Assembly (NCBI GenBank): GCA_022709525.1
Contig: JAKLIQ010000001.1
Location: forward strand, 210,679-274,678
Direction: 5' to 3'
Source: Candidatus Omnitrophota bacterium
GTDB lineage: Bacteria > Omnitrophota > Omnitrophia > Omnitrophales > Aquincolibacteriaceae
Length of the DNA stretch: 64,000 nt
Each line of letters opens with the position of its first letter. Position 1 is the stretch's first letter. A program made the position numbers and the translations under genes. This document shows positions 1 through 59,312 of the stretch, piece by piece. A model generated the notes under the pieces. It was given only the letters and a program-made list of their open reading frames with translations, was not told the origin of the DNA and did no database searches.

Positions 1-21
1 CCGCAATATGGCTTATTTTTA

Positions 22-936
22 ATGCCGATTTACCCCTTTACTATGGCGTATTTTATGATCAAGAGGGGGTTATTTGACGTTGAAGAACTCGCCCAGGCAG
101 CACACCGAGACAAACTCATGGCAATCGGAGTTTTAGCGGCCAGCATCAATCATGAGATCCGGAGCCCGCTTTTCCTGATCAAAGGGTCGGCCGAGAATTG
201 TCTGGAGAAACAAAAAGAAGGCCTTTTGTCCGAACCGTCGGAAGTGATCCAAAAGGGAAATGAAGCGCTTCAGAAAAATATCGAACAAGCCAACCGGGCG
301 CTCGATATCATCAAACGTCTTTCATCTTTCGCCAAGGCTGGGGTTGAGAGCAAGTTGAAAATAGAACCGGTTTCGGTGGCGGAAGTTATTGAGAATGTTC
401 TTCCGCTCGTCCGTCATGAGCTTACGGTTAATCAGATCTGTTTTCACAAAGAGATGCCGGAAAATACCCCTAAAGTTTTGGCCGATGCGCTATGCCTTGA
501 AGAAATCTTTTTTAATCTTATCGTGAATGCCTGCCAGGCTTTGAAAGAAAAACCGGATAACCGTGAGATCAGGATCGCGGCCAAAACGGGGGATTCGGGA
601 CTAGGGACTAGCCCCTCGTTTTTTTCAGACCTGCGAATCCTCCGCCAAAGGACGGATCCGTCCAGCGAATTGTGGCGGACGGGTCCCAGCCTGTCCGGCA
701 GGCAGGCCAAGGAACGAGTCCCGGTCATTGTCACCATCCAGGACAACGGTCCCGGTATTCCGGAAGACAAGATCGACGAGGTATTCCGTCCTTTCTATAC
801 CACCAAAGCCGAAGGCACCGGTCTCGGTCTTTATGTAGTCAAACAGCTGATCGAAAAAAACCGCGGTCACATCGAAGTCCAGTCGGTGCTCAATATTGGC
901 ACAAAATTCATTTTATCTATGTTAGGAGTTTCTTGA
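22..936 (+). CDS. Sensor histidine kinase, C-terminal part (HisKA H-box 'INHEIRSPL' plus HATPase_c); 5' end lies outside the window
   Basis: ORF track; H-box, N-box 'NLIVNACQA', G1 'DNGPGIP', G2 'GTGLGLY'. Carries an in-frame REP-like insert at 596-723. Confidence 0.8.
   Translation: MPIYPFTMAYFMIKRGLFDVEELAQAAHRDKLMAIGVLAASINHEIRSPLFLIKGSAENCLEKQKEGLLSEPSEVIQKGNEALQKNIEQANRALDIIKRLSSFAKAGVESKLKIEPVSVAEVIENVLPLVRHELTVNQICFHKEMPENTPKVLADALCLEEIFFNLIVNACQALKEKPDNREIRIAAKTGDSGLGTSPSFFSDLRILRQRTDPSSELWRTGPSLSGRQAKERVPVIVTIQDNGPGIPEDKIDEVFRPFYTTKAEGTGLGLYVVKQLIEKNRGHIEVQSVLNIGTKFILSMLGVS
596..723. repeat. REP/MITE-like palindromic element (CGGGACTAGGGACTAG ... GAGTCCCG) inside the HK1 coding frame
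   Basis: Terminal inverted repeats CGGGACT/AGTCCCG. 5' and 3' ends nearly identical to the copy at 2083-2171. Same GGGACT family as the intergenic copies. Confidence 0.6.
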
Positions 937-941
937 TAATC

Positions 942-2396
942 ATGAATTATTACGCATTCACCAGCTTATTCAACGGAGCGGTTGTACTCGCGATAAGTTT
1001 TTATCTTTTTTTTCGCCAACGACAAAACGATCTTTATCAAAGTTGCGCCATTTTTGCGATGTGCATCGGTCTGTGGTGCATTTTTTATGCTGTTTGGCAG
1101 ATGCAACATTCTTACCACGAAGCATTGACGTATATACGTCTGGCCATGATTCCATGTTACGCGATCCCTTTTGCTTTCTTGTGGTTTGCATTAAAACTAA
1201 CAAATACTTCCTATCATTCTTGGCAACCAGCCGCACTTCTTGCCATTCTTTTATTTTTTATGTTTTTTAGTTTTAATCCTCTGATGATAAGAAGTGTGGA
1301 ACCTGTAACTGGTTTTAATTTTTGGCCTCGTCCTGGAGTTTTAATGAATTTGTATGTTTCGCTTTTTTTTCTAATAATTTTATTGGGTTATTGGTTTTTA
1401 TGGCAAGCATATCGCAACGCTCGCGATACGCGACGTTGGCAGATTCGATGGGTGATGTTGTCATTACTGCCGGGCTGGTTGGGGGGAGCAACTAACTGGT
1501 GTCTTTGGTATGGTATTCCGGTCCCGCCGGTGGCACATATTTTCGTTGGCGTTGGATTTTTGTTGCTCTTCTACGCAATCGTGCGGGGTCGGTTATTCGA
1601 TGTAGATGTTTTGGCCGATCTTGTGCAAGAAGCAAAGCTTTCAGCGCTTGGGATCATGGCAACAAGTATCAATCATGAAGTGCGGAATCCCTTATTTGTG
1701 ATCAAAGGTCTTGCGGAAACGCTTTTAGAACGGGATGATGCGGATAGAGCGAAGGTCAAAGACATCGCTCAAAGGACCCTTGCGCAGGCCGATCGCGCGC
1801 TTGAGATCATTAAAAATTTTTCCGAGTACGCCAAACGGCAAAGCTCTAAAACATTTGATAAAGCGCCGCTTGATCTTAGAGAAATTCTGGAGGGCATTGT
1901 TCCATTTGTTCGCAGTGAACTGGCGCTGGATAAGATCACGCTAATTCTAACTATCCCGACGGGAACGACCATACAAGCCGATCGTCACTCAGTTGAAGAA
2001 ATCTTTCTAAACCTTATCGTCAATGCCTGCCAGGCTATGCCTGGTGGCGGGGAGATTAAAATCACAGCCAAAACAGGAGACCCGGGACTAGGGACTAGCC
2101 CCTCGTTTTTTTCAAAGCCACGAGCCACGAGTCCCTGCCTGTCCGGCAGGCAGGCCGACGAACGAGTCCCGGTTATTGTTACCATCCAGGACAACGGCCC
2201 TGGGATACCAGCCGAACAGCTGACCCACATTTTTGAGCCGTTTTATACCACCAAGTCCTCCGGGACCGGCCTGGGGCTTTATGTAGTCAGGCAACTCATC
2301 GAAAAAAACCGAGGCCGCATCGAAGCCCAATCAACGCAAGGCGTTGGCGCGACCTTTACGATTTACTTCTCCCGAGGGGCGACAAAACAGTTATAA
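942..2396 (+). CDS. Membrane sensor histidine kinase (multi-TM N-terminus plus HisKA plus HATPase_c); tandem paralog of the upstream partial kinase
   Basis: ATG 942 with AGGAG 13 nt upstream. H-box 'INHEVRNPL'; 'DNGPGIP', 'GTGLGLY'. The ORF-track extension back to 672 overlaps HK1 and is not coding. Confidence 0.85.
   Translation: MNYYAFTSLFNGAVVLAISFYLFFRQRQNDLYQSCAIFAMCIGLWCIFYAVWQMQHSYHEALTYIRLAMIPCYAIPFAFLWFALKLTNTSYHSWQPAALLAILLFFMFFSFNPLMIRSVEPVTGFNFWPRPGVLMNLYVSLFFLIILLGYWFLWQAYRNARDTRRWQIRWVMLSLLPGWLGGATNWCLWYGIPVPPVAHIFVGVGFLLLFYAIVRGRLFDVDVLADLVQEAKLSALGIMATSINHEVRNPLFVIKGLAETLLERDDADRAKVKDIAQRTLAQADRALEIIKNFSEYAKRQSSKTFDKAPLDLREILEGIVPFVRSELALDKITLILTIPTGTTIQADRHSVEEIFLNLIVNACQAMPGGGEIKITAKTGDPGLGTSPSFFSKPRATSPCLSGRQADERVPVIVTIQDNGPGIPAEQLTHIFEPFYTTKSSGTGLGLYVVRQLIEKNRGRIEAQSTQGVGATFTIYFSRGATKQL
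2083..2171. repeat. REP/MITE-like palindromic element inserted in-frame in the HK2 HATPase domain
   Basis: 'cgggactagggactagcccctcgtttttttca ... cctgtccggcaggcaggcc..gaacgagtcccg'. 89 nt, frame preserved, G1/G2 boxes intact downstream. Confidence 0.6.
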
Positions 2397-3955: not shown

Positions 3956-4614
3956 TAAAAGCCGCCTTTTTCGATATTGATGGCACATTAATTTCTTGTC
4001 AAAGCCAGCAAGAATTATCTAAATTTATGTTCAAAAAGCGAGCCCTTTCTTTTGCTAGTATGTTAAAACTTTTTTTTTGGTTTACAGGTTATAAGCTAGG
4101 AATTTTTAGAAAAACCGTTAGCATTCGAAAAAAAATGTATCGCATACTTTCTTTAAAAAATAAAAACCAAATTGATTTATTCATCAAAGAAACGTATGAA
4201 AAAAATATATATCCTCAGAGAAATCAAATTTTCAAATCAATCATACAAGGACTCAAAAAAAGAAAATATATAGTTGTTGGCATATCCGGCACGCTTCAGC
4301 AATTTTGCGATTTTATAAAAGTAGAATTTGATATGGATTACGCCTTTGGAACTAAACTTTGTGAAGAAAAGGAGCGATATAGCGGTCGTTGGATAGGCAA
4401 AATACTAGAGGGTGAAGATAAAGCAGAATTTATTCAAAAATTTTCTAAAACAAATAATGTAGATTTAAACAATAGTATATTTTATGGTGATAGCAGTTCT
4501 GATATTCCGTCGATGAAGTTGGTTGGAAAAGCGATTGCCGTGGCCCCAGATATCAAATTAGAGCGATTAGCTAAGAAGAAAGGTTGGGACATTATTGATG
4601 CAGGAAGTTTTTAA
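3952..4614 (+). CDS. HAD-superfamily subfamily IB hydrolase (phosphoserine-phosphatase-like)
   Basis: Motif I 'FFDIDGTLIS', motif IV 'GDSSSD'. ATGA overlap with the PlsC stop. Confidence 0.75.
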   Translation: MIKAAFFDIDGTLISCQSQQELSKFMFKKRALSFASMLKLFFWFTGYKLGIFRKTVSIRKKMYRILSLKNKNQIDLFIKETYEKNIYPQRNQIFKSIIQGLKKRKYIVVGISGTLQQFCDFIKVEFDMDYAFGTKLCEEKERYSGRWIGKILEGEDKAEFIQKFSKTNNVDLNNSIFYGDSSSDIPSMKLVGKAIAVAPDIKLERLAKKKGWDIIDAGSF

Positions 4615-6925
4615 AGATCAATACATGCTGGCATCTAGCTTTACGGCAGCGTCAACCTTTTTGTTAGCGGCTTTGGTTTTTTGGAAGAATTATAAGCGGC
4701 GATTGAACCTGCTTTACTTTTTTTGGGCTTTTTCAGTAGGATTTTGGAGTTTGGCACTTGTTTTTAACATTTTTTCATCAAATTTTACATCAGCGATTTT
4801 TTGGTCAAAAATTTTACATTTTTGGGCAATTCTTCTTCCTCCTATTTATGTTCATTTTGTCCTTCTTTTTTTACAAAAGGAAAATAAGTTCAAACGCTTA
4901 ATTATAGGCATATATCTACTTTCCTTCGTAACAATTCTTTTAGATTTTTCACCTTGGTTTTTGACATCAACTTATCGAGAAAAATTCCATTTTTTTGTTA
5001 CCAAGCCTTTAGCGCTTTATCCATTACATATTGTTTTATTTGTATTCTGCATTTTGTTTGCAATTTTCCAACTCTTTCTAAGTTTTAGAGAAAGTAAGGG
5101 AAAATATAAACAGCAGGTATGGTTCTTTTTTTTAGCAACGTTAATTGGTTATTCAGGGGGAATCACGAATTTTTTAATTAATTATGATTTTTTGATTTAT
5201 CCTCTTTATCCTTTTGGAAACTATACAATTTGTGCATATGTCGTTGTAATAGGTCTCGGTATTTTAAAATATCAGCTAATGGATATTTATGTAATCATTA
5301 GAAAAACTTTGGTTTTTGCAGGATTGTTTGGTCTTTTACTGTTGGTGGTGGGAACAATCACGGCGTTGACACAAAGTTATATCGGGCAACTTGTTGGAAT
5401 CGGAGCAACGACGAGGCAGATCTTAAGCATTTTGATTGCGATGGTGCTGTTTGATCCAGTCCGAAAATTTCTTACAAACGTTACTGATAAATTTCTTTTT
5501 CAGAAAAAATATGATTATCACAAGCTGCTGAAGGATGCGTCGCGGGGGATGTCGAATATCGAGTCGCTCGAGCGCTTGCTAGGACTCGTGGTGCACTTTG
5601 TGACGATGAAAATGCGCATCAAGAACGCCGCGGTACTGATGCGGGAGGGGGCAAGCGATCAATATAACCTTGTTTACCAGCGCGGATTCGACAAGAAATT
5701 CCTCACGCTTACCCTCTATCAAAACGATCCTCTGATCCACTATCTCGAGACGCACAAAGAAGCGGTGGATATCGAGCGCATCAAAGAACAGATCGAAACG
5801 GCTTCTTCCCGCCGTCACGGCAAAATCGCCGAAGATTATGATTACGAGGCGATCCGGGAACGGATGGACCAGCTTCAGGCAGCCTGCTGCGTGCCGAGTT
5901 TTCTGGGGCGCGAACTGCGGAACATCCTCCTCATGGGCGAGAAAAAATCCGGCGAATACTATTCCAATGAAGACCTGAACCTCCTTTATACGCTGGCCCA
6001 GGAATCCTCCATCGCGATCGAGAACGCCCGGCTCTACGATGAGGCGATCAAAAAATCCAGAGAGCTCGAGCATATCAACGACCAGCTCGAACATTCCAAG
6101 ACGCTTCTCATGAAGGCCCTTCAGGAGGCCGAAGGGGCCAATAAACAGCTTCAGGATACCCAGGCCCAGCTGATCCACGAACAAAAGATGGCGACGCTTG
6201 GCCGGCTGGCGGCCTCGGTCGGTCACGAGGTCAATAACCCCCTTACCATCCTTTCCATGAACGTTTCGCGCGTGATCCTGAAACACCGCAAGCATCCGGA
6301 CATGAAGGTGACGGAGATCATCGATGTGTTCGATAAGATGGAAAAAAATATCGAGCGCATCAAGGCGGTTGTGAACACGCTGACCGGCCTTCTTAAAAAA
6401 TCAGAGAAGGGAAAATTCGAAGCGCTATCGCTTAAGCTGATCCTGGAGGAAACCCTGCCGCTCGTGCAGTTCCAGACTTATCTTGATAATCTTTCCGGAA
6501 CGGAGGTCGATTTCAACGTGCCGGGCAACGTTCCCCTCATCCGCGGTGATCTCGAGCGCCTGCAGGAGGTTTTCCTTAATCTTTTTATTAACGCCTTCCA
6601 CGCCATGGCGGGGAAGCGGCACCGGAGGATCGAAGTCCATGCCGAGATGGACCCGCAGGACCCGAATATGGTCGCCGTCCATTTCAAGGATAACGGCTCC
6701 GGCATGACCGAGGATGTCATGAAAAAGGTCTTCAATTACGGGTTTACGACCAAGGCGCCGGGAAAAGGCTCCGGTCTCGGGCTTTACATGTGCAAATATA
6801 TCGTCGAACTCCACGGCGGCACGATCCGGGTCCAAAGCAAGCTCGGGGAGGGAACGACCTTCACGCTGACTTTGCCGATCTATTCCGAAACCTCGACTGT
6901 AAAAACTGTTTCGTCTTCGTCTTAA
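4598..6925 (+). CDS. Large membrane sensor histidine kinase (multi-TM sensor, GAF-like/coiled-coil linker, HisKA, HATPase_c)
   Basis: 'LAASVGHEVNNPL' H-box; 'GSGLGLYMCKYIVELHGG'. 5' third strongly AT-rich, 3' two-thirds GC-rich. Confidence 0.85.
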   Translation: MQEVFKDQYMLASSFTAASTFLLAALVFWKNYKRRLNLLYFFWAFSVGFWSLALVFNIFSSNFTSAIFWSKILHFWAILLPPIYVHFVLLFLQKENKFKRLIIGIYLLSFVTILLDFSPWFLTSTYREKFHFFVTKPLALYPLHIVLFVFCILFAIFQLFLSFRESKGKYKQQVWFFFLATLIGYSGGITNFLINYDFLIYPLYPFGNYTICAYVVVIGLGILKYQLMDIYVIIRKTLVFAGLFGLLLLVVGTITALTQSYIGQLVGIGATTRQILSILIAMVLFDPVRKFLTNVTDKFLFQKKYDYHKLLKDASRGMSNIESLERLLGLVVHFVTMKMRIKNAAVLMREGASDQYNLVYQRGFDKKFLTLTLYQNDPLIHYLETHKEAVDIERIKEQIETASSRRHGKIAEDYDYEAIRERMDQLQAACCVPSFLGRELRNILLMGEKKSGEYYSNEDLNLLYTLAQESSIAIENARLYDEAIKKSRELEHINDQLEHSKTLLMKALQEAEGANKQLQDTQAQLIHEQKMATLGRLAASVGHEVNNPLTILSMNVSRVILKHRKHPDMKVTEIIDVFDKMEKNIERIKAVVNTLTGLLKKSEKGKFEALSLKLILEETLPLVQFQTYLDNLSGTEVDFNVPGNVPLIRGDLERLQEVFLNLFINAFHAMAGKRHRRIEVHAEMDPQDPNMVAVHFKDNGSGMTEDVMKKVFNYGFTTKAPGKGSGLGLYMCKYIVELHGGTIRVQSKLGEGTTFTLTLPIYSETSTVKTVSSSS

Positions 6926-6950
6926 GCAAGCTAGAATGAATCATAAAGCT

Positions 6951-7026
6951 GGGACTCGGGACTAGTTCCTCGGGACTCGATAAAACGAGGGACAAAACGA
7001 GTCCCTAGTCCCGAGGGACGAGTCCC
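6951..7026. repeat. Intergenic REP-like palindromic element (GGGACTCGGGACTAG ... GAGTCCC) followed by a T-run
   Basis: Inverted arms plus TTTT at 7027-7030. Sits between the HK stop and the RR start and probably acts as a terminator. Confidence 0.6.
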
Positions 7027-7036
7027 TTTTAAAATT

Positions 7037-7393: not shown

Positions 7394-7398
7394 ACAGC

Positions 7399-7468
7399 CG
7401 GGACTCGGGACTAGGGACTCGTTCTCTTTCTTTGTTTTTCGAGTCCCGAGGAGCGAGGGGCGAGTCCC
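7399..7468. repeat. Intergenic REP-like palindromic element (CGGGACTCGGGACTAGGGACTC ... GAGTCCC plus TTTT)
   Basis: Same family; terminator-like. Confidence 0.6.
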
Positions 7469-7483
7469 TTTTAGAGGTTTCAT

Positions 7484-8474: not shown

Positions 8475-8808
8475 ACGGGGGGACCTTTTTTGGGTCGACC
8501 TTGCCTCGACGCGGGGTTCGGAACAGGCGGGCCGGAGACCTGTACTGGTTATTCAAAATGATATTGGCAATGAATTTGCCCCGACGGTCATTGTGGCCCC
8601 CTTGACAACCAAAAGTTTTTCAAAAGACTATCCCACCAATGTTCATGTCCCGAAGTCGATTGGCGGACTAAAATCTGATTCCACGGTCCTTTTATCACAG
8701 ATCCGCACTCTGGATAAAAAACGTCTTGAAAAAAAGATCAGCCATCTTTCCGATACGTATCTTGAAAAGGTCAATCAGGCCATCAAAGTAAGTTTGGGGT
8801 TGGTCTGA
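8464..8808 (+). CDS. mazF: MazF/PemK-family mRNA interferase toxin
   Basis: 'RGDLFWVDL...GSEQAGRRPVLVIQND...PTVIVAPLTT'. Confidence 0.8.
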   Translation: MPIKRGDLFWVDLASTRGSEQAGRRPVLVIQNDIGNEFAPTVIVAPLTTKSFSKDYPTNVHVPKSIGGLKSDSTVLLSQIRTLDKKRLEKKISHLSDTYLEKVNQAIKVSLGLV

Positions 8809-8812
8809 CAGG

Positions 8813-9043
8813 ATGATGAAATTCTCAGTTACCGTCAAAACCCAGGCCAGGGAAAATCGCGTTGAAGAAGTAAGCCCGGGCGGATTGCGCGTTTGGGTCA
8901 AAGCGCCGCCGCGGGAAGGCCGCGCCAACGAAGCGGTGGTCGAAACGCTGGCGGCTTATTTTAAGGTCCCCAAAAGCCGGGTGGCCATTGTCGGCGGTTT
9001 TAAAAGTAAGACAAAAATTGTAGCAATCGGGACTCGGGACTAG
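8813..9043 (+). CDS. DUF167/YggU-family small protein
   Basis: 'VKAPPREGRANEAVVETLAAYFKVPKSRVAIVGG'. Last codons and the TAG stop lie inside a REP element. Confidence 0.7.
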   Translation: MMKFSVTVKTQARENRVEEVSPGGLRVWVKAPPREGRANEAVVETLAAYFKVPKSRVAIVGGFKSKTKIVAIGTRD

Positions 9044-9170
9044 TTCCTCGCCTGGTTCTCATGAATTTTTGACAGAAACCAGTGCAGTACCTGATAATCT
9101 TTTAAATTTTAAAGAAATCAAGCACGGGACTCAATAGAACGAGCCCCGAGTCCCCAGGGGCGAGTCCCCC
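9028..9170. repeat. Composite REP-like element: left arm 9028-9053 (CGGGACTCGGGACTAG...), AT-rich 70-nt spacer, right arm 9124-9170 (...GAGTCCCCAGGGGCGAGTCCCCC)
   Basis: Same GGGACT family; the arms form an inverted repeat. Confidence 0.5.
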
Positions 9171-9223: not shown

Positions 9224-11575
9224 ATGTTCCGTCATTTCGCAGAATTCGTACATCATTTCCGGTGGCCGGTCCTTCTGGCTATCCTGCTAAGCGTCTTTAT
9301 CCTCGGGATGGCGGTCTTGCGTCTCCAGGTCGATCCCTCCATGGAAACCCTCTTCATCAAAAAATCCCCCGAATACCAGTATTACCAGCAATACCGCGGA
9401 AAATACGGCAGCGACCAGATGATCGCCGTCGCCATGGCCACCGACGATCTCTTCACGCCCGCAAATCTCCGGATCCTTAAAAGCATTACCGACGGGATCG
9501 CCAGTTACGGGCAAGTGGAGCGCGTGATGAGCCTCGCTAACGCCATGGATATCCGCCACAAAATGCTCGGCGTCAAAACCGTTCCGGCGCTGGAGGGGGT
9601 GTTCGAAGGGGAGCGTTCGATCGAAACCGTCAAAGAGGAAGTGTTGCGCAATGAACTTTATCTCAGCAACATTGTTTCCAAGAACGGCAAGATCGCCAAC
9701 ATCCTGGTTTATCTGAAGCCGGCGGAAAAGAACAGTGCGGCGGCCAACGGCGCCTTTATCGAGGAGCTGCGGGCCTATCTCGAGGATTTTGAAGGTCCCG
9801 GCGTGAAGTTCTACATGGCCGGCGCCCCGGTCGAGCAGTATGAATTCATCGATCTTATCCACCGCGACCAGATGGTGTTCGTGCCGATCATTACGGCGAT
9901 CCTCGTCCTCATGACGCTTTTGATCTACCGGAGCTTTACCTGTATGGTCCTTTCGATGTCGATCGTGTTTACGACGCTTATCTGGACGCTCGGGACGATC
10001 GCGCTTTTAGGGCAGGAGCTCAACCTGATGACGTCACTTCTGGCGCCCGTGATCATGATCGTGTCGGTGATCAATTCCACTTACCTCATCAATCTTTTCT
10101 TCGAGGTCCGGCCGCATCACAAAAGCTTGAAAGAAGCGGTAAGCGTCACGATCCAACAGCTCGGGATGCCGTGTTTTTTGACGCATTTTACGGCGATCCT
10201 CGGGTTCGGCTCGCTCGCTTTGAGCCCCATCCCGGCGATCCAAAGCTTCGGGATCTTTGCGGCACTCGGGACTTTCTATTCCTATATCGTCGAGCTGGTC
10301 ATGACGACGCTGCTTCTGCCGATCCTGCCGTACCGGATTCCGAATCCCGGCAAGGCGCCGGAAGGGCATTTTTTTAACCGAGTGCTTTTGGGATTTCTTG
10401 AGAAGCTTGAATTCCGGTGGAAATGGCTCATCCTCATCGTGACCGCGATCGTGCTCGCGTTTTCCGTCCAGGGGGTCCGGAAGCTTGAAGTCGATACGAA
10501 TATCGTTAAACAAATGAAGCCGAACCTGCCGCTCGCGGTCGCGACGCGGTTCATCGACGATAACTTGACCGGCGTTTATTCGCTGGGTTTTGTTTTCCGC
10601 CGCAAGGACGGAGAAAGCATCGTGGACGCCAAGACCCTGGGTCTGCTTGACCAGTTCAAAACCTACCTGGAAGGGGAGCCCGGGATCGCAAAGGTCAACA
10701 GCATCACGACGCTGGTTAAAAAGATCAATGAAGCGCGGCAGAACGACCCCGACGCTTACCGCATTCCGCGGAGCCCGATGATCCTCAATCTTTATTTCAA
10801 GGGCATGGCCCAGTCCAAGGATCCCGAGCTTTGGAAGCTTGTCTCGCCCGATTTCAAAGAAGTGCGCCTGGAAGCGCGCATGCGGGCGATCGGGACAACG
10901 CAGGGGGCGCTTCTGGAGGAGCGTGTCCGGGAATATCTGAAGACCCATATGAGCGATTTCTTTGAATACAAGCTGACGGGCAATGTGGTGCTTTTGGGCA
11001 AGATCGCCAAGAGTCTTGTGCATGAGCAGACGCAGAGCTTCGCGTTCGCTTTCGCCTCCATCCTGATCGTGATCGTGCTCATCTTCCGCTCGATCCCGCT
11101 GGGGCTCCTGGCGGCGGTTCCGAACGTTTTTCCGATCCTGACGGTTTACGGGATCATGGGGTTCGCGGGGATCGAGCTTTCAACGGCGACCGCTATGATC
11201 GCGAGCATTGTTCTCGGCCTTGTCGTAGACGCCTCGATCCAGTTTCTCTACCGGTTCCGCAAAGAGTTCCAGCACCGGTCGCATTATATCCAGTCCCTTC
11301 ACCACACTTACCGGAACATGGGCCAATCGATGGTGGTTTCGACACTGATCCTCTGCATGGGGTTTGCCGCGAGCGTTTTCGCGAGTTTCCGGATCACGGT
11401 GCATTTCGGTGTTCTGACGAGTCTTACGATCTTTCTGGCGCTTCTTTGTTCTCTTTTGGTGATGCCGGTGCTCCTGATCATGATGAAGCCGTTCGGCCCC
11501 CAGCGTCTTTTCAAACGCAAAGTCGCCGACAAAGACCCTTTGTACGCGGCCAAACATCCCGTCAAGCATGTCTAG
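9224..11575 (+). CDS. RND-superfamily / MMPL (HpnN-like) exporter with two 6-TM bundles
   Basis: 783 aa with two hydrophobic bundles and periplasmic loops; typical MMPL/SSD topology. Confidence 0.75.
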   Translation: MFRHFAEFVHHFRWPVLLAILLSVFILGMAVLRLQVDPSMETLFIKKSPEYQYYQQYRGKYGSDQMIAVAMATDDLFTPANLRILKSITDGIASYGQVERVMSLANAMDIRHKMLGVKTVPALEGVFEGERSIETVKEEVLRNELYLSNIVSKNGKIANILVYLKPAEKNSAAANGAFIEELRAYLEDFEGPGVKFYMAGAPVEQYEFIDLIHRDQMVFVPIITAILVLMTLLIYRSFTCMVLSMSIVFTTLIWTLGTIALLGQELNLMTSLLAPVIMIVSVINSTYLINLFFEVRPHHKSLKEAVSVTIQQLGMPCFLTHFTAILGFGSLALSPIPAIQSFGIFAALGTFYSYIVELVMTTLLLPILPYRIPNPGKAPEGHFFNRVLLGFLEKLEFRWKWLILIVTAIVLAFSVQGVRKLEVDTNIVKQMKPNLPLAVATRFIDDNLTGVYSLGFVFRRKDGESIVDAKTLGLLDQFKTYLEGEPGIAKVNSITTLVKKINEARQNDPDAYRIPRSPMILNLYFKGMAQSKDPELWKLVSPDFKEVRLEARMRAIGTTQGALLEERVREYLKTHMSDFFEYKLTGNVVLLGKIAKSLVHEQTQSFAFAFASILIVIVLIFRSIPLGLLAAVPNVFPILTVYGIMGFAGIELSTATAMIASIVLGLVVDASIQFLYRFRKEFQHRSHYIQSLHHTYRNMGQSMVVSTLILCMGFAASVFASFRITVHFGVLTSLTIFLALLCSLLVMPVLLIMMKPFGPQRLFKRKVADKDPLYAAKHPVKHV

Positions 11576-11713: not shown

Positions 11714-13234
11714 ATGTTCCATTCGAAAAAACTTATCCCTCTTCTCGCTTTAGTGCTTGTGGTTGGAACGGCCTTTGTGCTGTCCGGCTGCGCAAGTTGC
11801 TGCGGCGAAGCAAAATCCAAACCCGCTTCTACGGGCGGCGCGCTTCGCGGCGTGCTAGGGTGTGATGACTGCGAAAAATCCTCCAGTCCTCTTCACATCG
11901 AAAAAGAAATGCCGCGTCAGATCGTCGTGGGAAAACCCTACACTTATACGATCAAGGTCTCCAATGAATCCTCCTGTGTGTTGGAAGACGTGGTCGTGAA
12001 CGAAAGGGTCCCTGAGAAATACGAAATGCAGACCGCGACTCCCAAGCTGAGCAATGTGGCCGGGCGCGTCGCAACCTGGGATCTCGGCTATTTGAAAGCC
12101 GGAGAGACCAAAGTGATCACCATTACCGGTATTGCTTCAGATGCTAGCGCGACGACGGCTTGCACGACGGGCGATTATACCCCTGTCCTGTGCCTTAGCC
12201 CCGAGGCGATCTCCCCGAGCTTGAAAGTCGCTATCGAAGCTCCGGATCAGGCGCTCATCTGCGATACGATCCCGGTCAAGATCACCGTGACCAATAGCGG
12301 CACCGGTTACGCGCAGGGCGTTGTGATCACCCAAGCCCTTCCGAAAGGCCTTACCACGACGGACGGAAAGACCTCCGTCACGATCAATGTCGGGGACCTC
12401 GCGGGCGGCGCCTCCAAGGCGTTCAGCGTGAACCTCAAAGCCACGGAGACCGGTAGCTTCGCCAACAAGGCGAGCGCCGAGGCCTCTAACGGCTTGTCCG
12501 CTGCGTCCGGTTCCGTGACCACCGAAGTGAGCCAACCCGTGCTTAAGGTCAATATCGCGGGCCCGAGCAAGATCTTCGTTACGAAGAACGCGAACTATGA
12601 AGTGACGGCGCAGAACGTGGGCGATGCCGCTTCGGCCAATACCGTTGTGAGCGCGACCATTCCTTCGGGCATGAAATTTGTGAGCGCCACCAACGGCGGC
12701 GCCGCGGATGGCGGCAAAGTCGTATGGAATATCGGCACGCTTGAAGCCGGTAAGTCCGTGAAGCTCGGTATGACCTTGAACAGTGTGACCGGCGGCACCG
12801 GCGAAAGCGTTGCCAGGGCGACCGGTACTTGCTGCCAGGAAGCTGGCGCAAGAGTCCAATCCGATGTCCAGGGTATCCCGGCCATCCTTTTGGAGGTCAT
12901 TGATACCGAAGACCCGATCCAGGTTGGCGGAACGGAAAAGCTTTACATCACCGTGACCAACCAGGGATCCGCTCCGGATAACGACATTGTCGTGAAAGTG
13001 AAATTCGAAGAGAATCTCGACTATGTCGCCGCGTCCGGTCCGACGCCCGGAAGATCCGATGACGTCAAGAGCGTCGAATTCGCGCCGCTTGCGTCCCTCG
13101 GCGCGGGACAAAAAGCAACATGGGAAGTGACCGCGAAAGCGGCCAGTGAAGGCGACCATCGCACGACCGTTGTTATGACCAGCGATGCGATCAGCCGCCC
13201 CGTGCAGGAAACGGAAGCGACCCGGATCTACTAA
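11714..13234 (+). CDS. Cysteine-rich lipoprotein with DUF11/Chlam_OMP6-type repeats (OmcB-like), long paralog
   Basis: Lipobox 'LSGCASCCGEA'. Repeated Ig-like DUF11 units. C-terminus '...ETEATRIY' shared with the paralog at 22333. RBS CAGGAGG before ATG 11714. Confidence 0.7.
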   Translation: MFHSKKLIPLLALVLVVGTAFVLSGCASCCGEAKSKPASTGGALRGVLGCDDCEKSSSPLHIEKEMPRQIVVGKPYTYTIKVSNESSCVLEDVVVNERVPEKYEMQTATPKLSNVAGRVATWDLGYLKAGETKVITITGIASDASATTACTTGDYTPVLCLSPEAISPSLKVAIEAPDQALICDTIPVKITVTNSGTGYAQGVVITQALPKGLTTTDGKTSVTINVGDLAGGASKAFSVNLKATETGSFANKASAEASNGLSAASGSVTTEVSQPVLKVNIAGPSKIFVTKNANYEVTAQNVGDAASANTVVSATIPSGMKFVSATNGGAADGGKVVWNIGTLEAGKSVKLGMTLNSVTGGTGESVARATGTCCQEAGARVQSDVQGIPAILLEVIDTEDPIQVGGTEKLYITVTNQGSAPDNDIVVKVKFEENLDYVAASGPTPGRSDDVKSVEFAPLASLGAGQKATWEVTAKAASEGDHRTTVVMTSDAISRPVQETEATRIY

Positions 13235-15964: not shown

Positions 15965-16891
15965 ATGCGCGAAGAGAAAAATGATTCAGGAGAGAAGCAG
16001 CATTTTTACATGCTCGAAGCCAGGCACGCGGAACTGGTCGAGTTGGGAAAAATCTCCCTTGAGGATCTTGGCGCCCTTTCCCTCATGGGGTGCAATATCA
16101 ATCCTCACAATGGATACATGATAACCGGGCATAGCGATTATGCCGGAAGGGCAAATATTAAACCGTCCCAAGCGCGCTATCTTTTCGAAAAACTTGAGAG
16201 CGCCGGGCTTATCCGTTTTTTACTTCTCCAGCGCGGGCGATACAGTAAGGGATTGCTGTTTGTAATGGGCCGGAAGTTGGCTGGAGGCATGACGGTTAAC
16301 GATGAATTTGTTTCAAAAACAGCCAAAAAACGAGGCGTTTTTTCCGAATTGGAAAGCGACTTTCCGAATAAGAAAATTACCGAAATCCCCTCTACGGACA
16401 CTCTAGAAGTAAATGACGGATTCCGAATTGACCGAGAGGGAGAGGGAAAGGAGACGGAGACAGAAAGGGAGAGGGATAACGAGCCAATCCTTATTAAAGC
16501 GCCAAGGCTCACCATGGAAATAGCAAAGCATCCCCTTTTTAAACGCATCACGGAAGCGAATTGGGATCTCATTTACAAGAAATACGAATATGCTTGGCTA
16601 GATAACAAACTTCAGGACCTTGCTGGACGGCTTAATAAGGGACCTATATCTTTCGATCGATTGAATGGAATGCTCCAAGATGACTGGACCCAGCGAAGGC
16701 CAGCAAAAGATTATCGTCGCGAGGATGAGAAACAAAAAGCCGATATGCGCCAATGGGCCGCAGATCAAAAGGCAGACGAAGGGAAACCAGATCCGGAGTG
16801 TTTGATTGAGTGGCGAAAGAAGCGTGATCGCATGAAAGGATCGGGGACAACCGAAGCAATGACTGAAGCCGGCGCTGGTGAAAGCACATGA
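15965..16891 (+). CDS. Hypothetical protein with winged-helix-like N-terminal region and acidic ER-rich tract (replication-organizer-like?)
   Basis: 'ARYLFEKLESAGLIRFLLLQRGRYSKG'. Low-complexity 'EGEGKETETERERDNE'. Confidence 0.4.
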   Translation: MREEKNDSGEKQHFYMLEARHAELVELGKISLEDLGALSLMGCNINPHNGYMITGHSDYAGRANIKPSQARYLFEKLESAGLIRFLLLQRGRYSKGLLFVMGRKLAGGMTVNDEFVSKTAKKRGVFSELESDFPNKKITEIPSTDTLEVNDGFRIDREGEGKETETERERDNEPILIKAPRLTMEIAKHPLFKRITEANWDLIYKKYEYAWLDNKLQDLAGRLNKGPISFDRLNGMLQDDWTQRRPAKDYRREDEKQKADMRQWAADQKADEGKPDPECLIEWRKKRDRMKGSGTTEAMTEAGAGEST

Positions 16892-21179: not shown

Positions 21180-21300
21180 GCTTTTTCCCTCATCTGGTCT
21201 GGTTTTGGTCCCTAAACGGTCCCAAGTCCTACATGAGGGATTCTAGCGTGCACTTAATTCATTGTCAAACAAGCATTTACAGCATCACTCTAAAAAAGAG

Positions 21301-21384
21301 TGGGGAGTAGTGGATTCGAACCACTGAAGGCTAAAAGCCAACAGATTTACAGTCTGTCCCCTTTGGCCGCTCGGGCAACTCCCC
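21301..21384 (-). tRNA. tRNA-Tyr (anticodon GTA), long variable arm, CCA not encoded
   Basis: Hand-folded: GGGGAGT acceptor, ACAGA/TCTGT anticodon stem with loop CTGTAAA, AGTGG-TTCGAAT-CCACT T-arm. Confidence 0.85.
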
Positions 21385-21469: not shown

Positions 21470-21541
21470 AGCTGGTGGAGGGATTTGAACCCCCGACCCG
21501 CTGTTTACAAAACAGCTGCTCTACCCCTGAGCTACACCAGC
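21470..21541 (-). tRNA. tRNA-Thr (anticodon TGT)
   Basis: Hand-folded: GCTGGTG acceptor, GCTGT/ACAGC anticodon stem with loop TTTGTAA, GGGGG-TTCAAAT-CCCTC T-arm. Confidence 0.8.
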
Positions 21542-21885
21542 AAAAACGAAATCTTACCATGACAAAGAACGCCGAGTTTTATAACCCCTGTCCGCCTGAA
21601 GGTATCTTTCAGGACGGATCCGTCCTCCGCATGGATTTCTGCGGAGGCGGAAGCTACACCAGCACTGATTCTCATTTTAATTAAAAAATCAAATGTTTCC
21701 AAGCCGATATCAATAGAAGGATCCGATCGAAAGCGCGTCATTCTACAAGAATCCCCGTCAAAAATAAAGCGGGCAAAATTTTCAAAACATCTTGACCCCA
21801 TCTCCTCATAGGCGTAGACTAAAAACGCTGTTCTCTTGAATGCGAAAATTTTTCAACCTGCACCGCAAAAAAAAAGGAGAAGGCC

Positions 21886-22332: not shown

Positions 22333-23187
22333 ATGAAGAGAACGGTGGCGAACATTTGTGTTTTAGTTTTCATGGTCGCGATCGCTTTTGCCCTTTCCGG
22401 TTGCGCGTCCTGTTGCGGAGAGGCGGCCCCAGCGAAGGCCCCTGCAACCAAGGGAATGCTGCATGGAACGATCGGATGCGATGATTGCGAGCTTTCCTCC
22501 AGCCCATTGAGGGTTGATAAGGAAATGCCGGGCCAGGTCGTGGTCGGGAAGCCCTATACCTACACGATCAAGGTCACCAACGAGGCCTCCTGCGTTCTTG
22601 AGGATGTCGTCGTGATCGAAAGGGTTTCCGAGGGCTACAAGATCGAATCCGCCAATCCTTCGGCGACCAAGGTTTCCGGCCGCGTTGCGGAATGGGATAT
22701 CGGCTATCTGAAGCCCAACGAGACCAAAGTCATCACGATCACGGGAGTGGCATCCAGCCCCAGCGCGACAACTTCCTGCACGAAAGCCGATTATAACCCG
22801 GTGCTTTGCCTCGGTCCGGGGGTGGGGATCCCGGCGATCCTGCTTGAAGTGGTGGATACCGAAGATCCCGTCCAGGTTGGCGGAATGGAGAAGTTCTATG
22901 TGATGGTAACGAACCAAGGAAATGCCGTGGATTCGGATATCGTCGTGAAAGTGGATTTTGAAGAAAATTTTGACTATGTGTCGTCGGGCGGTCCCACCGC
23001 GGGCAAGGCGGAAAGCGCCAAAACCGTTACGTTCGCTCCTCTAGCCGCTTTGGCCCCCGGGCAGAAAGCGACATGGGAAGTGACCGCGAAGGCCGTTTCG
23101 GAAGGGGATCATCGCACCTCCGTGAAGTTGACAAGCGATGCGATCCAGCGTTCCGTCGACGAAACTGAGGCGACCCGGATCTATTAA
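22333..23187 (+). CDS. Cysteine-rich DUF11/OmcB-like lipoprotein, short paralog
   Basis: 'LSGCASCCGEA' lipobox. N- and C-terminal domains homologous to 11714..13234; ends '...ETEATRIY'. RBS AAGGAGG. Confidence 0.7.
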   Translation: MKRTVANICVLVFMVAIAFALSGCASCCGEAAPAKAPATKGMLHGTIGCDDCELSSSPLRVDKEMPGQVVVGKPYTYTIKVTNEASCVLEDVVVIERVSEGYKIESANPSATKVSGRVAEWDIGYLKPNETKVITITGVASSPSATTSCTKADYNPVLCLGPGVGIPAILLEVVDTEDPVQVGGMEKFYVMVTNQGNAVDSDIVVKVDFEENFDYVSSGGPTAGKAESAKTVTFAPLAALAPGQKATWEVTAKAVSEGDHRTSVKLTSDAIQRSVDETEATRIY

Positions 23188-48018: not shown

Positions 48019-48354
48019 ATGAAAGCCGATCAATTAAAAATTTCTGAGTCCACGAACAATTATTTCCGGTGTCTTGCGAAGGCGATGGACAGGACCCGCC
48101 AGTTGCTCTGCAGAAAAGATCTAACGCCAAGCCATAAAGGGATCCATTCCGTGAAATCTATTCTCTATGCCGCGATCGAGCGGGCGGGCATGGAATCGGA
48201 ACGCTTGATCTCCGCGCAGGAGCTTTTACGCGAACTCTTGGCGTTCGTAGCGCTTCAAGCGGACCCCGCGCCCGGCGAACGGGAGGAAGCGCTCAGGATC
48301 CTTAAAAAACTTCAAGCACACCACTTTATGATAAATAACGATGTTTCCAGATGA
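48019..48354 (+). CDS. Hypothetical protein (111 aa)
   Basis: ORF only. Confidence 0.35.
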   Translation: MKADQLKISESTNNYFRCLAKAMDRTRQLLCRKDLTPSHKGIHSVKSILYAAIERAGMESERLISAQELLRELLAFVALQADPAPGEREEALRILKKLQAHHFMINNDVSR

Positions 48355-48376
48355 TTTCAAATTTGAAATCTCAAAT
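48353..48376. repeat. Palindromic motif GATTTCAAATTTGAAATCTCAAAT (core TCAAATTTGA) upstream of the IVS-family gene
   Basis: Perfect palindrome CAAATTTG. Related copies at 48671-48702 and 48885-48908. Confidence 0.5.
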
Positions 48377-48394
48377 AGATTTAGAGAAAAATAA

Positions 48395-48877
48395 ATGAAA
48401 TTCGAGCGTTTTGAAGATCTACCGGTCTGGAAAGACAGCGTTGAACTGGCAACCGCTATTTTTCGAATGACCCGGAGCCATCGATTTCGCGGGCTTGGAG
48501 ATATTTCGAACCAGATACAACGGGCGGGGCTTTCCATATCCAATAATATTGCGGAAGGATTCGAGCGCGGTACGACTCAGGAGCTACTCTCTTTTCTTTA
48601 TTACGCAAGGGGCTCGGCAGGAGAAGTGCGCTCCATCTTATCGGTCATGGAAAATCTCGAAAATCTCCATGATCTCAAATTTGAAATTTCAAATCTGAAA
48701 TCCGCCGCTGAAGCGGTTTCGCGCCAGATCCGAGGTTGGGCGGCGGCGTTACAGAATACACCCATTCGTGGGCAGCGGTATCTTGGCGAACAATCAAAAG
48801 CAGCATTCGATCAAGAAAAAAGCCGCAAAATGTTTAAGGAAACGCTCAAACGATATTATCAACCTCCGGTCTCTTAA
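48395..48877 (+). CDS. Four-helix-bundle protein of the 23S-rRNA-IVS family (second copy)
   Basis: 'ISNQIQRAGLSISNNIAEGFERGT'. Contains an internal copy of the palindrome, encoding 'DLKFEISNLKS'. Confidence 0.75.
   Translation: MKFERFEDLPVWKDSVELATAIFRMTRSHRFRGLGDISNQIQRAGLSISNNIAEGFERGTTQELLSFLYYARGSAGEVRSILSVMENLENLHDLKFEISNLKSAAEAVSRQIRGWAAALQNTPIRGQRYLGEQSKAAFDQEKSRKMFKETLKRYYQPPVS
48671..48702. repeat. Internal copy GATCTCAAATTTGAAATTTCAAATCTGAAATC of the palindromic motif, inside the coding sequence
   Basis: 17/17 identical to the copy at 48885-48901. Confidence 0.5.
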
Positions 48878-48884
48878 GATTTAA

Positions 48885-48908
48885 GATCTCAAATTTGAAA
48901 TTGCAAGG
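48885..48908. repeat. Downstream copy GATCTCAAATTTGAAATTGCAAGG of the palindromic motif
   Basis: Immediately after the stop codon. Confidence 0.5.
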
Positions 48909-48951
48909 CCGCAAATCGCTACGGCATAACATTTTCGGTTCGCTCCTTAGC

Positions 48952-57443: not shown

Positions 57444-57986
57444 ATGTCCGCCAAAAATTCCTTCAGAAGGATGGTCCTCGAAAAAAGGAAAAATATCCCG
57501 GCCGTTTCGAGGCGCGCCAAGAGCAAAAAGATCTTCAAGCGTTTGATCCAAACCTCTGTTTTCCAAAGGTCCGCTCACATCGCCTTTTACTGCGGGATCA
57601 CGCCCGAGGTATCCACGCAATCGTTCCTTAAGGCCGCTCTCAAAGATAAAAAGATCTATCTTCCCAGGGTCCAGTTAAGAAAAAAGCGCCTGCAATTCCA
57701 TCGCGTGCGTTCCCTCGGGGATCTCCGGCGGGGGCCTTATGGTATCCTGGAGCCGAAACCTTCTTGCGCCGCGATCCCGGCGAAGCGCCTCGAACTGATC
57801 ATCGTGCCGGGAGTCGCATTTGACAGAAAGGGCGGGCGTCTGGGCCGCGGCGCCGGGTATTACGACCGTTTTCTGAAAAAAGCCAAGCAGGCGGTCAAGG
57901 TTGGCCTCTGTTTTCGGGAACAGATCGTCAAAAAGATCCCGATGAAGCATCACGACGTTCGGATGGATCGGATTATTACAGATTAA
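57444..57986 (+). CDS. 5-formyltetrahydrofolate cyclo-ligase (MTHFS)
   Basis: 'VPGVAFDRKGGRLGRGAGYYDRFL'. RBS GAAAGGGG before ATG 57444. Confidence 0.8.
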   Translation: MSAKNSFRRMVLEKRKNIPAVSRRAKSKKIFKRLIQTSVFQRSAHIAFYCGITPEVSTQSFLKAALKDKKIYLPRVQLRKKRLQFHRVRSLGDLRRGPYGILEPKPSCAAIPAKRLELIIVPGVAFDRKGGRLGRGAGYYDRFLKKAKQAVKVGLCFREQIVKKIPMKHHDVRMDRIITD

Positions 57987-57990
57987 AAAA

Positions 57991-58046
57991 CGGGACTCGG
58001 GACTCGTAAACGAAGAACCAAAACAAGTCCCGAGCTACGAGTCTCT
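57991..58046. repeat. Intergenic REP-like element (CGGGACTCGGGACTCG ... CAAGTCCCGAGCTACGAGTCTC)
   Basis: Same GGGACT family; lies between the MTHFS stop and the xseA start. Confidence 0.55.
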
Positions 58047-58055
58047 TTAAGCTAA

Positions 58056-59312
58056 GTGAAAACAAAAATGAGAATACAGGAAGAAAATCTTCTCAAAGGG
58101 TCGGAGAGTCGGAAAATTTATACGGTCAGCCAGCTCAACCGCCAGGCCCGTATGCTTTTGGAATCAAGATTTCCCACGGTATGGGTGGAAGGGGAGATCT
58201 CGAATTTCAAGCGGCACACTTCGGGCCACATTTATCTGACGCTCAAGGATGAGGCGTCGCAGATCCAGGCGGCTTTTTTCAACCAGTATCATCGCGGGCT
58301 CAAATTTGAATTGAAGGACGGGCTCAAAGTCCTCGCGTTCTGCCGCGTTTCCATTTATGAGGCGCGGGGGCAGTACCAGCTTTACGTCGAACGCATCGAA
58401 CCTCAAGGCGTGGGCGCGCTCCAGCTCGCGTTCCAGCAATTAAAAGAACGTTTGGAAAAGGAAGGGCTTTTTCTTCAAGAAAGAAAACGCCCGATCCCCC
58501 CGTTCCCGAAAATAGTCGGCGTGATCACGTCGCCCACGGGGGCTGCGATCCATGATATCTTAAACGTCGTGAACCGCCGTTTTTGCGGGACACACATCCA
58601 GCTTTATCCCGCGAAAGTCCAGGGCGAGGGCGCGGCTGATGAGATCGCGGCCGCCCTCCGGGTCATGAATGAGCGCTCGGAGGCTGAAGTTCTGATCGTC
58701 GGGCGCGGCGGCGGGAGCTTGGAAGATCTTTGGGCTTTTAATGAGGAGGCGGTCGCCCGCGCAGTCTTTGCATCCCGGATCCCGGTCATCTCGGCGGTAG
58801 GGCACGAGACCGACTGGACGATCTGCGATCTTGTTGCGGATCTCCGGGCGCCGACACCATCCGCCGCGGCGGAACTTGTCGTTTCAAGCCGCCTGGAGCT
58901 GGAAGCGCGGCTTCAGCGATCCGGGGAGAGGATCCAATTTGCGGCAAATAACATGCTTGAAAATTTCCGGTCCAGGCTTGAAAATTTGATCTCCAGCGCC
59001 GGATTCAAAGAACCACAGTATCTTTTGGAGCAATTCCTCTCAAGAGTTGACGAGGCGGGGCGCCATATGGAGGAACGCTTTAAAAATTTTATGAATTCCA
59101 AAGAGCAGATCTTTCAGGGCCTGACGGGCCGGTTAAACGCGCTCAGTCCCCTTGCTATTCTAGAGCGGGGTTATTCTGTTAGTTTTGATGAGCATGGGAA
59201 GATCGTTAAAAAAACCGGACAAGTGTCGGTCGGGAGCTCCATGCGGACCCGTTTCCGGAAAGGTTCGGTGCTTTCAAAGATCACCGCTATTCAAGAAGAT
59301 GAGGAGATATAA
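58056..59312 (+). CDS. xseA: Exodeoxyribonuclease VII large subunit
   Basis: OB-fold N-terminus 'IYTVSQLNRQARMLLESRFPTVWVEGEISNFKRHTSGHIYLTLKD'. GTG 58056 or ATG 58068. Confidence 0.85.
   Translation: MKTKMRIQEENLLKGSESRKIYTVSQLNRQARMLLESRFPTVWVEGEISNFKRHTSGHIYLTLKDEASQIQAAFFNQYHRGLKFELKDGLKVLAFCRVSIYEARGQYQLYVERIEPQGVGALQLAFQQLKERLEKEGLFLQERKRPIPPFPKIVGVITSPTGAAIHDILNVVNRRFCGTHIQLYPAKVQGEGAADEIAAALRVMNERSEAEVLIVGRGGGSLEDLWAFNEEAVARAVFASRIPVISAVGHETDWTICDLVADLRAPTPSAAAELVVSSRLELEARLQRSGERIQFAANNMLENFRSRLENLISSAGFKEPQYLLEQFLSRVDEAGRHMEERFKNFMNSKEQIFQGLTGRLNALSPLAILERGYSVSFDEHGKIVKKTGQVSVGSSMRTRFRKGSVLSKITAIQEDEEI

Follow-up and report, generated by a model that had tools for sequence, protein, structure and literature searches.

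How does a palindromic DNA repeat come to lie, in frame, inside the catalytic domain of two neighbouring sensor kinases whose genes appear intact? This question is raised by the left end of a 64,000-nt stretch of a Candidatus Omnitrophota contig (JAKLIQ010000001.1, assembly GCA_022709525.1, positions 210,679 to 274,678; hereafter the window), where two tandem histidine kinase genes, HK1 and HK2, each carry a hairpin element of the GGGACT family within the DNA of their ATP-binding domain. Our analysis confirmed the in-frame element in both kinases. Based on comparison with the rest of the window, with homologous kinases and with a structural model, we consider it very likely that a dispersed hairpin repeat sits in frame in HK1, that HK2 received its copy by gene conversion, and that the encoded peptide is a tolerated passenger loop. 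The genes and coding copies concerned are the following.

1..936, + strand: C-terminal 311 codons of HK1, a HisKA_7TM histidine kinase (full length 505 aa), truncated by the left edge of the window.
597..722, + strand: long form (126 nt) of the GGGACT-family hairpin element, in frame in HK1 and encoding GLGTSPSFFSDLRILRQRTDPSSELWRTGPSLSGRQAKERVP.
942..2396, + strand: HK2 (P0001), a 484-aa HisKA_7TM histidine kinase (Pfam, AlphaFold2).
2084..2170, + strand: short form (87 nt) of the GGGACT-family hairpin element, in frame in HK2 and encoding GLGTSPSFFSKPRATSPCLSGRQADERVP.
4595..6925, + strand: HK3, a paralogous kinase with uninterrupted hairpin, serving as internal control (Pfam, N-box to G1 spacing).

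Both coding copies start with GGGACTAGGGACTAGCCCCTCGTTTTTTTCA and finish with CTGTCCGGCAGGCAGGCC..GAACGAGTCCC; their first 32 nt at the 5' end are identical, and the coding DNA that flanks them is about 50-80% identical. Each lies between the N box (NLIVNACQA) and the G1 box (DNGPGI), keeps the frame with zero stops and leaves G1, F and G2 undamaged downstream; when the conserved columns were checked, the H, N, G1, F and G2 motifs were all intact in HK1 and HK2. A first-pass annotation, made from the letters of this DNA, had described a GGGACT-family element between the N box/AKTGD and G1 of both kinases, with near-identical ends, an unbroken frame, intact G1 and G2 boxes and a third kinase free of it, and on all these points we agree with it. 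Two of its figures need revision. It began HK1 at position 22, whereas the reading frame is already open at base 1 of the window and the complete gene occupies 8478-9995 of L137, on the source contig (550,887 bp). Its 43 and 30 added residues are correct as lengths of the element in codons and not as net gain, which relative to empty-site orthologs is 41 aa for HK1 and 28 aa for HK2. The inserted peptides consist to about 60% of Gly, Ser, Pro, Thr and Arg, with TGDPGLGTSPSFFSKPR as a predicted tryptic peptide. Pfam finds HisKA_7TM, HisKA and HATPase_c in HK1 and HK2, which places both among the histidine kinases, and in each the HATPase_c match begins only at profile position 38, past the insert. 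In HK3 the match runs over profile positions 1-109 in one unbroken stretch, and 37 aa lead from the N box to G1 with no insert. On the minus strand, spurious open reading frames (ORFs) of 81-108 aa cross the palindromic inserts (window 444-770 and 1985-2230; peptides ...NEGLVPSP...).

The element recurs outside the kinases. The motif GGGACTAGGGACTAG, with at most 3 mismatches, has 11 matches in the window against 0.63 expected, and all 16 of the CGAGTCCC/GGGACTCG octamers of the window (2.2 expected) lie inside six elements. These six copies fall within 73 kb of the source contig, that is, the window and a further 9 kb examined through L137. Besides the two coding copies they are:

6951..7026, + strand: intergenic copy downstream of the HK3 stop (6925) and upstream of a response-regulator start (7037); folding z score -4.95; TTTT follows.
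7400..7468, + strand: intergenic copy that follows the response-regulator stop (7393) and precedes the start of a dTDP-sugar isomerase (7484); z = -2.3; TTTT follows.
9029..9168, + strand: longer copy overlapping the end of a 76-aa PF02594 gene; z = -3.9; the next gene starts at 9224.
57992..58045, + strand: degenerate intergenic copy between an ORF end at 57986 and an ORF start at 58056; weak fold, z = -1.2.

An element is built of 2-4 tandem heptamers GGGACTM (units GGGACTC or GGGACTA, sometimes GYYCCTC), a T/A-rich loop and complementary heptamers, for which the right arms use CGAGTCCC, GAGGGRC and GAGTCCC, with KAGTCCC as the general complement. Terminal inverted repeats are present (GGGACTMGGGACT... 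against ...AGTCCCKAGTCCC), and, in Watson-Crick folding, five of the six elements fold better than shuffled sequences (z from -2.1 to -4.95), including those of HK1 (z = -2.1) and HK2 (z = -4.7). The four non-kinase copies all occupy short spacers between co-directional genes on the + strand, where they begin 5-25 nt past the upstream stop or overlap it, and end 10-55 nt before the next start; orientation relative to transcription is identical in all six copies. The copy at 9029 reaches into its upstream neighbour, the PF02594 gene (window 8813-9043; L137 17872-18102): the final four codons of this gene, for GTRD, and its TAG stop, which ends at 9043, come from the left arm of the element. Among the short intergenic copies, 2-4 of the six frames are free of stops. 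The usual home of the repeat in this genome would thus be the short spacer just past a stop codon, between co-directional genes, where the copies may act as 3'-end hairpins, either as terminators or as mRNA stabilisers. In L117, the spacers orthologous to window 6926-7036 and 7394-7483 (16275-16381 and 16739-16818) contain hairpins of other heptamers, GTCAGAG-type and CACGCAC-type; position and architecture are conserved, with the heptamer differing between genomes.

Where the insert falls in the protein was judged on an AlphaFold2 model of HK2 with a mean predicted local distance difference test score (pLDDT) of 86.9. Residues 379-410, which span the insert, have a pLDDT of 42-61 and lie between strands 370-378 and 411-417. 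The closest solved folds found by Foldseek are the kinases ZraS and HK853, with dimerization and histidine phosphotransfer (DHp) and catalytic and ATP-binding (CA) domains, and on the solved cytoplasmic domain of ZraS (9jfj) the HK2 flanks align to residues 126-168 and 167-237, abutting at 168/167 and leaving 26 HK2 residues without a partner. On this modelling, the site would be the beta-hairpin turn that links the strand following the N-box helix to the strand entering G1, and the insert would be a low-confidence, disordered surface loop in the ATP-binding domain, the kind of place for which a structure model had been proposed as a check. The ATP lid of histidine kinases lies between G1/F and G2; the insert site is therefore not the ATP lid, to which it had first been assigned.

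Scored by N-box to G1 spacing, 116 homologs of HK2 fall into 72 with an empty site (32-39 aa) and 44 with extra residues, the latter in at least six recognisable sequence families. The empty genes include the closest HK2 orthologs (P0005, P0011, P0013 and P0021; 64-67% identical); in orthologs of 60-67% identity this place is a tight turn, and the comparison of HATPase_c domains with homologs thus bears out that the insert is absent from close orthologs. L001 and L117 share the gene order GAF-kinase, HK1 ortholog, HK2 ortholog, response regulator, and because of this synteny we treat their kinases as orthologs of HK1 and HK2. L001 has a filled HK1 ortholog and an empty HK2 ortholog; the HK1 ortholog of L117 (8497-9894) is empty, as are the HK1 orthologs P0090 and P0112. 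L116 and L118 hold further coding variants at the identical site. A link to the spacer copies comes from the L001 HK1 ortholog, whose element (8661-8737; GGGACTCGGGACTAGTACCTCGGGACTCG...CGAGTCCCTAGCCCCGAGGAACGAGTTCC) matches the window intergenic copy 6951-7026 heptamer for heptamer.

That a related segment occupies the site in HK1 orthologs of three other assemblies (L001, L116 and L002) could also mean that the insert is an ancestral, lineage-specific linker which some members have lost, its likeness to the intergenic repeats being secondary. However, these segments are full DNA-level copies of the intergenic repeat, heptamer order included; the syntenic HK1 ortholog of L117 is empty; and on a rough neighbour-joining tree without support values the filled genes are scattered among the empty ones, the sisters P0076 and P0090, for example, being filled and empty, respectively. 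We therefore consider an ancestral linker very unlikely. A homologous segment in orthologs had been named beforehand as the observation that would speak for such a linker; what the orthologs carry turned out to be copies of the repeat, patchily distributed.

Insertions in these kinases are confined to a small part of the protein. In 77 aligned homologs, all internal insertions of at least 6 aa are at one of two places, site A (after HK2 residues 365-369) or site B (after 376-382), with none elsewhere in about 460 residues, so that on these alignments the N-box to G1 site appears to be an insertion hot spot. The kinase cluster on the source contig gives the same picture, with inserts in four of its five kinases. 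Directly upstream of HK1, outside the left edge of the window, are two extra tandem HisKA_7TM kinases (L137 4724-8481): a GAF-kinase with an 81-nt site-A element at the N-box loop (KPNSLLKDSKVNWTSPGNLRGEENRCQGK), and next to it a kinase with a 17-bp perfect palindrome at hairpin site B (GTACACACCCGGTGTGT..., peptide SNAPRTHPVCTLVDTPGVYKG) and a folding energy of -43.7 kcal/mol. The metagenome-assembled genome (MAG) of P0001 bears the NCBI label 'Candidatus Moranbacteria'; close homologs, synteny and the repeat family all point to Omnitrophota, so that the label probably stems from an error of binning or taxonomy.

A site so often occupied, in the homologs as in the cluster, and insertions so narrowly placed could suggest that the element family targets this spot and struck HK1 and HK2 separately. 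The comparison of the two genes argues for another history, in which one tract is central:

2055..2215, + strand: HK1-type tract of HK2, putative gene conversion (sliding identity; HK1 donor about 568-765).

Upstream of the N box, nucleotide identity between HK1 and HK2 is about 0.5 and each is nearer to its own ortholog. Over HK2 2055-2196 their identity is 0.85-0.92, and in this part HK2 is 0.50-0.57 identical to its own ortholog versus 0.64-0.94 to the HK1 ortholog (sliding identity). The residues bordering the HK2 insert, AKTGD and VPVIVTIQDNGPGIP, are of the HK1-family type; HK2 orthologs read AKEEKPW...IKIRDTGPGL. This reversal of identity, together with the HK1-type flanks, indicates that a conversion tract from HK1 to HK2, of about 150 nt including about 60 nt of flank, would have carried the element. 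An insertion would not rewrite flanks, yet HK1-type sequence in HK2 reaches the coding flanks on both sides; furthermore, at least six unrelated families at the site argue for tolerance and exchange between paralogs, and not for a shared integrase specificity. Two independent, site-specific insertions are thus quite unlikely, and the two insertions originally described are better read as one event plus gene conversion between paralogs. The same kind of exchange is seen in another organism, where an HK2-family gene (L118) bears the L001 HK1-type subfamily, loop included, and such exchange therefore recurs. A contig from a close relative (L002 1-1040, Logan SRR15237811) holds a single kinase upstream of the response regulator, with the short insert form; this kinase is mostly HK1-like with an HK2-like 3' end, and is explained either by a genuine deletion that fused HK1 with HK2 or by a false join that the repeat induced in k-mer assembly.

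The long and short forms differ by an internal piece, beside which a second small palindrome is shared.

642..680, + strand: internal palindromic module of 39 nt (TCCGCCAAAGGACGGATCCGTCCAGCGAATTGTGGCGGA) in HK1; not in HK2 or the relative L002 (alignment).
689..709, + strand: HK1 element, right half: small inner palindrome with CCTGTCCGGCAGG as its core.

The 39-nt module folds with z = -2.7. The lack of the module in L002 would suit a recent nested insertion in HK1, but the module was also found at the equivalent internal position of an intergenic element in another Omnitrophota genome (L014 2382-2490). Because it is also inside this intergenic copy, we read the piece as a module of the element family, and the HK1/HK2 difference would be either the gain or the loss of such a module. 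The inner palindrome has its counterpart at 2137-2157 in HK2 (2 matches versus 0.04 expected) and is seen as a stem in the folds. A strong double hairpin at window 21586-21660 (z = -5.4), adjoining tRNA-Thr (21470-21541) and tRNA-Tyr (21300-21384), has a GGACGGATCCGTCC core and TCCGCC/GGCGGA ends in common with the 39-nt module.

Are these kinases still genes under selection? Between HK1 and L002, the part upstream of the insert gives nonsynonymous and synonymous divergences (dN and dS) of 0.053 and 1.35, an omega of about 0.04, and the kinase is under strong purifying selection. Inside the insert, dN is 0.078 and dS 0.127 (dN/dS about 0.6, with only 8 differences), and downstream of it dS is 0.21; this low downstream dS suggests that the 3' half has recombined recently. 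The HK1 element is identical in three assemblies other than this one, and four assemblies (JGI, ENA), from different samples and pipelines, agree exactly in the two insert forms and in the tandem order. Repeats of this kind can mislead assemblers, and the Logan contig L002 with its HK1/HK2 chimera, possibly a repeat-induced join, could be cited for the reading that the window genes are themselves pseudogenes or chimeras of repeat-induced misassembly. Against this stand two intact genes with all catalytic motifs and a dN/dS of 0.04, and insert forms and tandem order that recur without change in the four assemblies, so that this reading is extremely improbable. Purifying selection and recurrence in four independent assemblies lead us to regard the kinases as neither pseudogene nor artefact. 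Three further candidates were rejected: a frameshift or pseudogene, for which a frameshift or stop had been named as the sign to look for and none is present (both frames intact, dN/dS about 0.04); programmed bypass or hopping in the style of T4 gene 60, as the insert does not open with an in-frame stop; and a mini-intein, as the insert has 28-41 residues and no splicing motifs.

The same divergence values bear on whether the insert has acquired a function. It could have been domesticated, either as an internal RNA site for pausing or processing, by which the sensor and catalytic parts are uncoupled, or as a docking or variable surface loop of the CA domain. The element DNA is indeed more conserved than flanking synonymous sites (dS 0.13 versus 1.35), all six window copies share their orientation relative to transcription, and inserts persist in many intact orthologs. 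However, the low dS continues downstream (0.21), where recent recombination accounts for it; the dN/dS of the insert, about 0.6 on 8 differences versus 0.04 for the kinase, suggests little constraint on the peptide; and the sequences at the site are unrelated between orthologs, with the loop modelled as disordered. Domestication is therefore unlikely.

Based on these results, we propose the following course of events. One copy of the spacer repeat would have landed in the HK1 kinase lineage, in the DNA of the tight N-box/G1 beta-hairpin turn. Two properties may explain why it was tolerated: the heptamer arms are stop-free in most frames, which would ease survival of in-frame copies, and the turn, at the sheet side of the domain, is a tip exposed to solvent and directed away from the nucleotide pocket. 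The element would then be translated as a disordered loop of 28-41 residues rich in Gly, Ser, Pro and Arg, a peptide presumably made and harmless, while the kinase keeps working. In a short non-reciprocal recombination, for which the conserved DNA of the N and G1 boxes would serve as homology arms, the element and its HK1 flank may have been copied to HK2, and the same arms could spread inserts among paralogs more generally. The direction and mechanism of the original insertion are a conjectural part of this scheme.

Several observations weigh against this explanation. The borders of filled HK1-family sites, compared with empty ones, have no target-site duplication, and in filled HK1 orthologs the element stands in place of the native 6-residue loop and is not merely added to it. 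No transposase or RAYT-type (REP-associated tyrosine transposase) gene was seen in the 73 kb, the ORFs of which were not screened for PF01797, so that any mobility would be hypothetical. The same family occupies the same site in several HK1 orthologs, so that vertical inheritance could partly explain the distribution, and the patchiness of that distribution rests on the neighbour-joining tree without support values. The dS values in and downstream of the insert (0.13-0.21), far below the 1.35 upstream, point to recent recombination, which blurs the polarity of the 39-nt difference. Finally, a simple consensus terminator scan flagged no intergenic copy on the + strand. In a metagenome scan the exact head of the HK subfamily (GGGACTMGGGACTAGCCCCTCGTTTT) had no match, and hence there is no donor or master copy to point to.

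How does the element compare with known repeats? Rickettsia palindromic elements (RPEs) are dispersed palindromic repeats found between genes and in frame in functional genes (Ogata et al. 2000, 2002, as summarised in PMC10969869). The element described here is likewise a multi-copy palindromic repeat that lies between genes and in frame in intact genes and adds a fold-compatible peptide; of the features that define RPEs, a dispersed hairpin repeat and in-frame copies in conserved genes are found, the latter in HK1, HK2 and the valyl-tRNA synthetase (ValRS) of L014. The RPE-style reading of the first-pass annotation thus holds: an intergenic-type repeat is in frame, at a fold-compatible place, and absent from orthologs with empty sites. 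The differences are equally clear. The element is in an Omnitrophota-like lineage (the contig and all close homologs belong to Omnitrophota-type MAGs), not in Rickettsia; it is shorter, at 54-140 nt compared with about 100-150 bp for RPEs, and is made of tandem heptamers; and it has no sequence relation to RPE-1 to RPE-10, as judged without direct alignment to the RPE consensus sequences. Heptamer arms are not a known feature of RPEs, nor are RPEs known to be concentrated in two loops of a single domain or to have passed from paralog to paralog through gene conversion. The element is functionally RPE-like and not a member of the RPE families.

Its arms have closer relatives among G-rich heptameric repeats, such as GGGAATC in Xanthomonas and GGGGAYT in Nostoc (PMC4692102), or the four tandem GGGACCG units at 49 inter- and intragenic sites of Geobacter metallireducens (PMC2700814). 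In common with these it has a unit of GGG plus 4 nt in 2-4 tandem repeats, a location mostly between co-directional ORFs near a stop codon, occasional inverted arrangements and a minority of intragenic copies. Unlike them, its arrays are short and paired with an inverted array into a compact hairpin, in recognisable subfamilies, and neither PMC4692102 nor PMC2700814 describes in-frame conserved inserts in enzymes. By their sequence, the arms can be assigned to the G-rich heptamer repeat class. 

Small hairpin repeats in operon spacers are also typical of repetitive extragenic palindromic (REP) sequences, bacterial interspersed mosaic elements (BIMEs) and bacterial MITEs, or miniature inverted-repeat transposable elements (PMC3733652, PMC3184786, PMC10969869, PMC5896051), and in-frame fusions of MITEs with host ORFs have been described for ERIC, BOX, the Coxiella QMITE and Anabaena MITEs (PMC10969869). 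The present element resembles all of these in being small, hairpin-forming, apparently non-autonomous and located in operon spacers. REP/BIME palindromes of 20-40 bp carry a GTAG or CGTC tetranucleotide head (PMC3733652); here there is no such head, and the arms start with GGGACT and end with AGTCCC. Of the marks of a MITE, terminal inverted repeats are found and a target-site duplication is not, and no associated RAYT or insertion sequence appeared in the sequence examined (ORFs not screened for PF01797). The MITE label given at first, which implies transposition, is therefore not retained, there being neither target-site duplication nor transposase in view. We found no report in the open-access literature of such repeats in Omnitrophota or in HATPase_c domains. 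Taken together, this is an RPE-like phenomenon, as known from Rickettsia, in a new lineage and with a new element.

The family is not restricted to these kinases. In other Omnitrophota MAGs, it lies in frame within the catalytic domain of a ValRS (L014), within a very large ORF of many domains (L006) and, in L031, between a DUF1016 domain and an SNase domain. Searched in one genome per species, GGGACTMGGGACTAGNNMCTCG was found in at least 113 stretches versus about 4 expected by our own estimate; among the matches listed are Acidobacteriota, Gemmatimonadota, Clostridia, Proteobacteria, cyanobacteria, Planctomycetota and Omnitrophota, and in those listed (L003-L115) the heptamer arrays are mostly longer, with an inverted array frequently following downstream. 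Among the same listed matches, GGGACTM arrays often change to other heptamers within one array. The site-A element belongs to a second repeat family (core AAGGNNAATTGGNNTAGTCCTGG; peptide PNSPSKNSKVNWTSPGNLQSEENRCQGK), seen in L116 (7002, 8645), L117 (11129) and L119-L136. It is in frame in kinases, in an aconitase-like ORF, in UbiD-like decarboxylase ORFs and in other long ORFs, the non-kinase hosts being named from flanking peptide motifs without a Pfam scan; it also occurs outside ORFs and in opposite orientation, and is weakly palindromic. 

One may go further and imagine the N-box to G1 segment of Omnitrophota HisKA_7TM kinases as more than a tolerant loop, namely as a cassette site that time and again captures palindromic elements from several families, which gene conversion across the conserved DNA of the N and G1 boxes then shuffles between paralogs. 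We think this is a long shot; if true, the cassette site would yield heritable variation of the kinase surface, or a hairpin in the message RNA, that is open to selection.

Two other repeats lie elsewhere in the window. At 48353-48919, an A/T-rich palindromic motif (GATCTCAAATTTGAAATTTCAAATCTGAAATC) is present in three copies with spacings of 318 and 214 nt, and two 300-nt segments (12871-13170 and 22824-23123), 9,953 nt apart and 70% identical, presumably belong to paralogous genes.

In practical terms, a HATPase_c match in Pfam is split by such an insert, false ORFs are seeded on the reverse strand, and short-read assemblies can be broken or made chimeric. For the kinase family, insertions of at least 6 aa confined to one 17-residue stretch in 77 homologs amount to a natural tolerance map of the catalytic domain, and conversion of the stretch between the gene's two best-conserved blocks of DNA would offer a simple route by which one insertion can pass through a paralog family. 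More broadly, 'selfish DNA inside proteins' is best known from Rickettsia; these results would extend it to a signalling ATPase and to a phylum that is uncultured and lives either freely or as an episymbiont.

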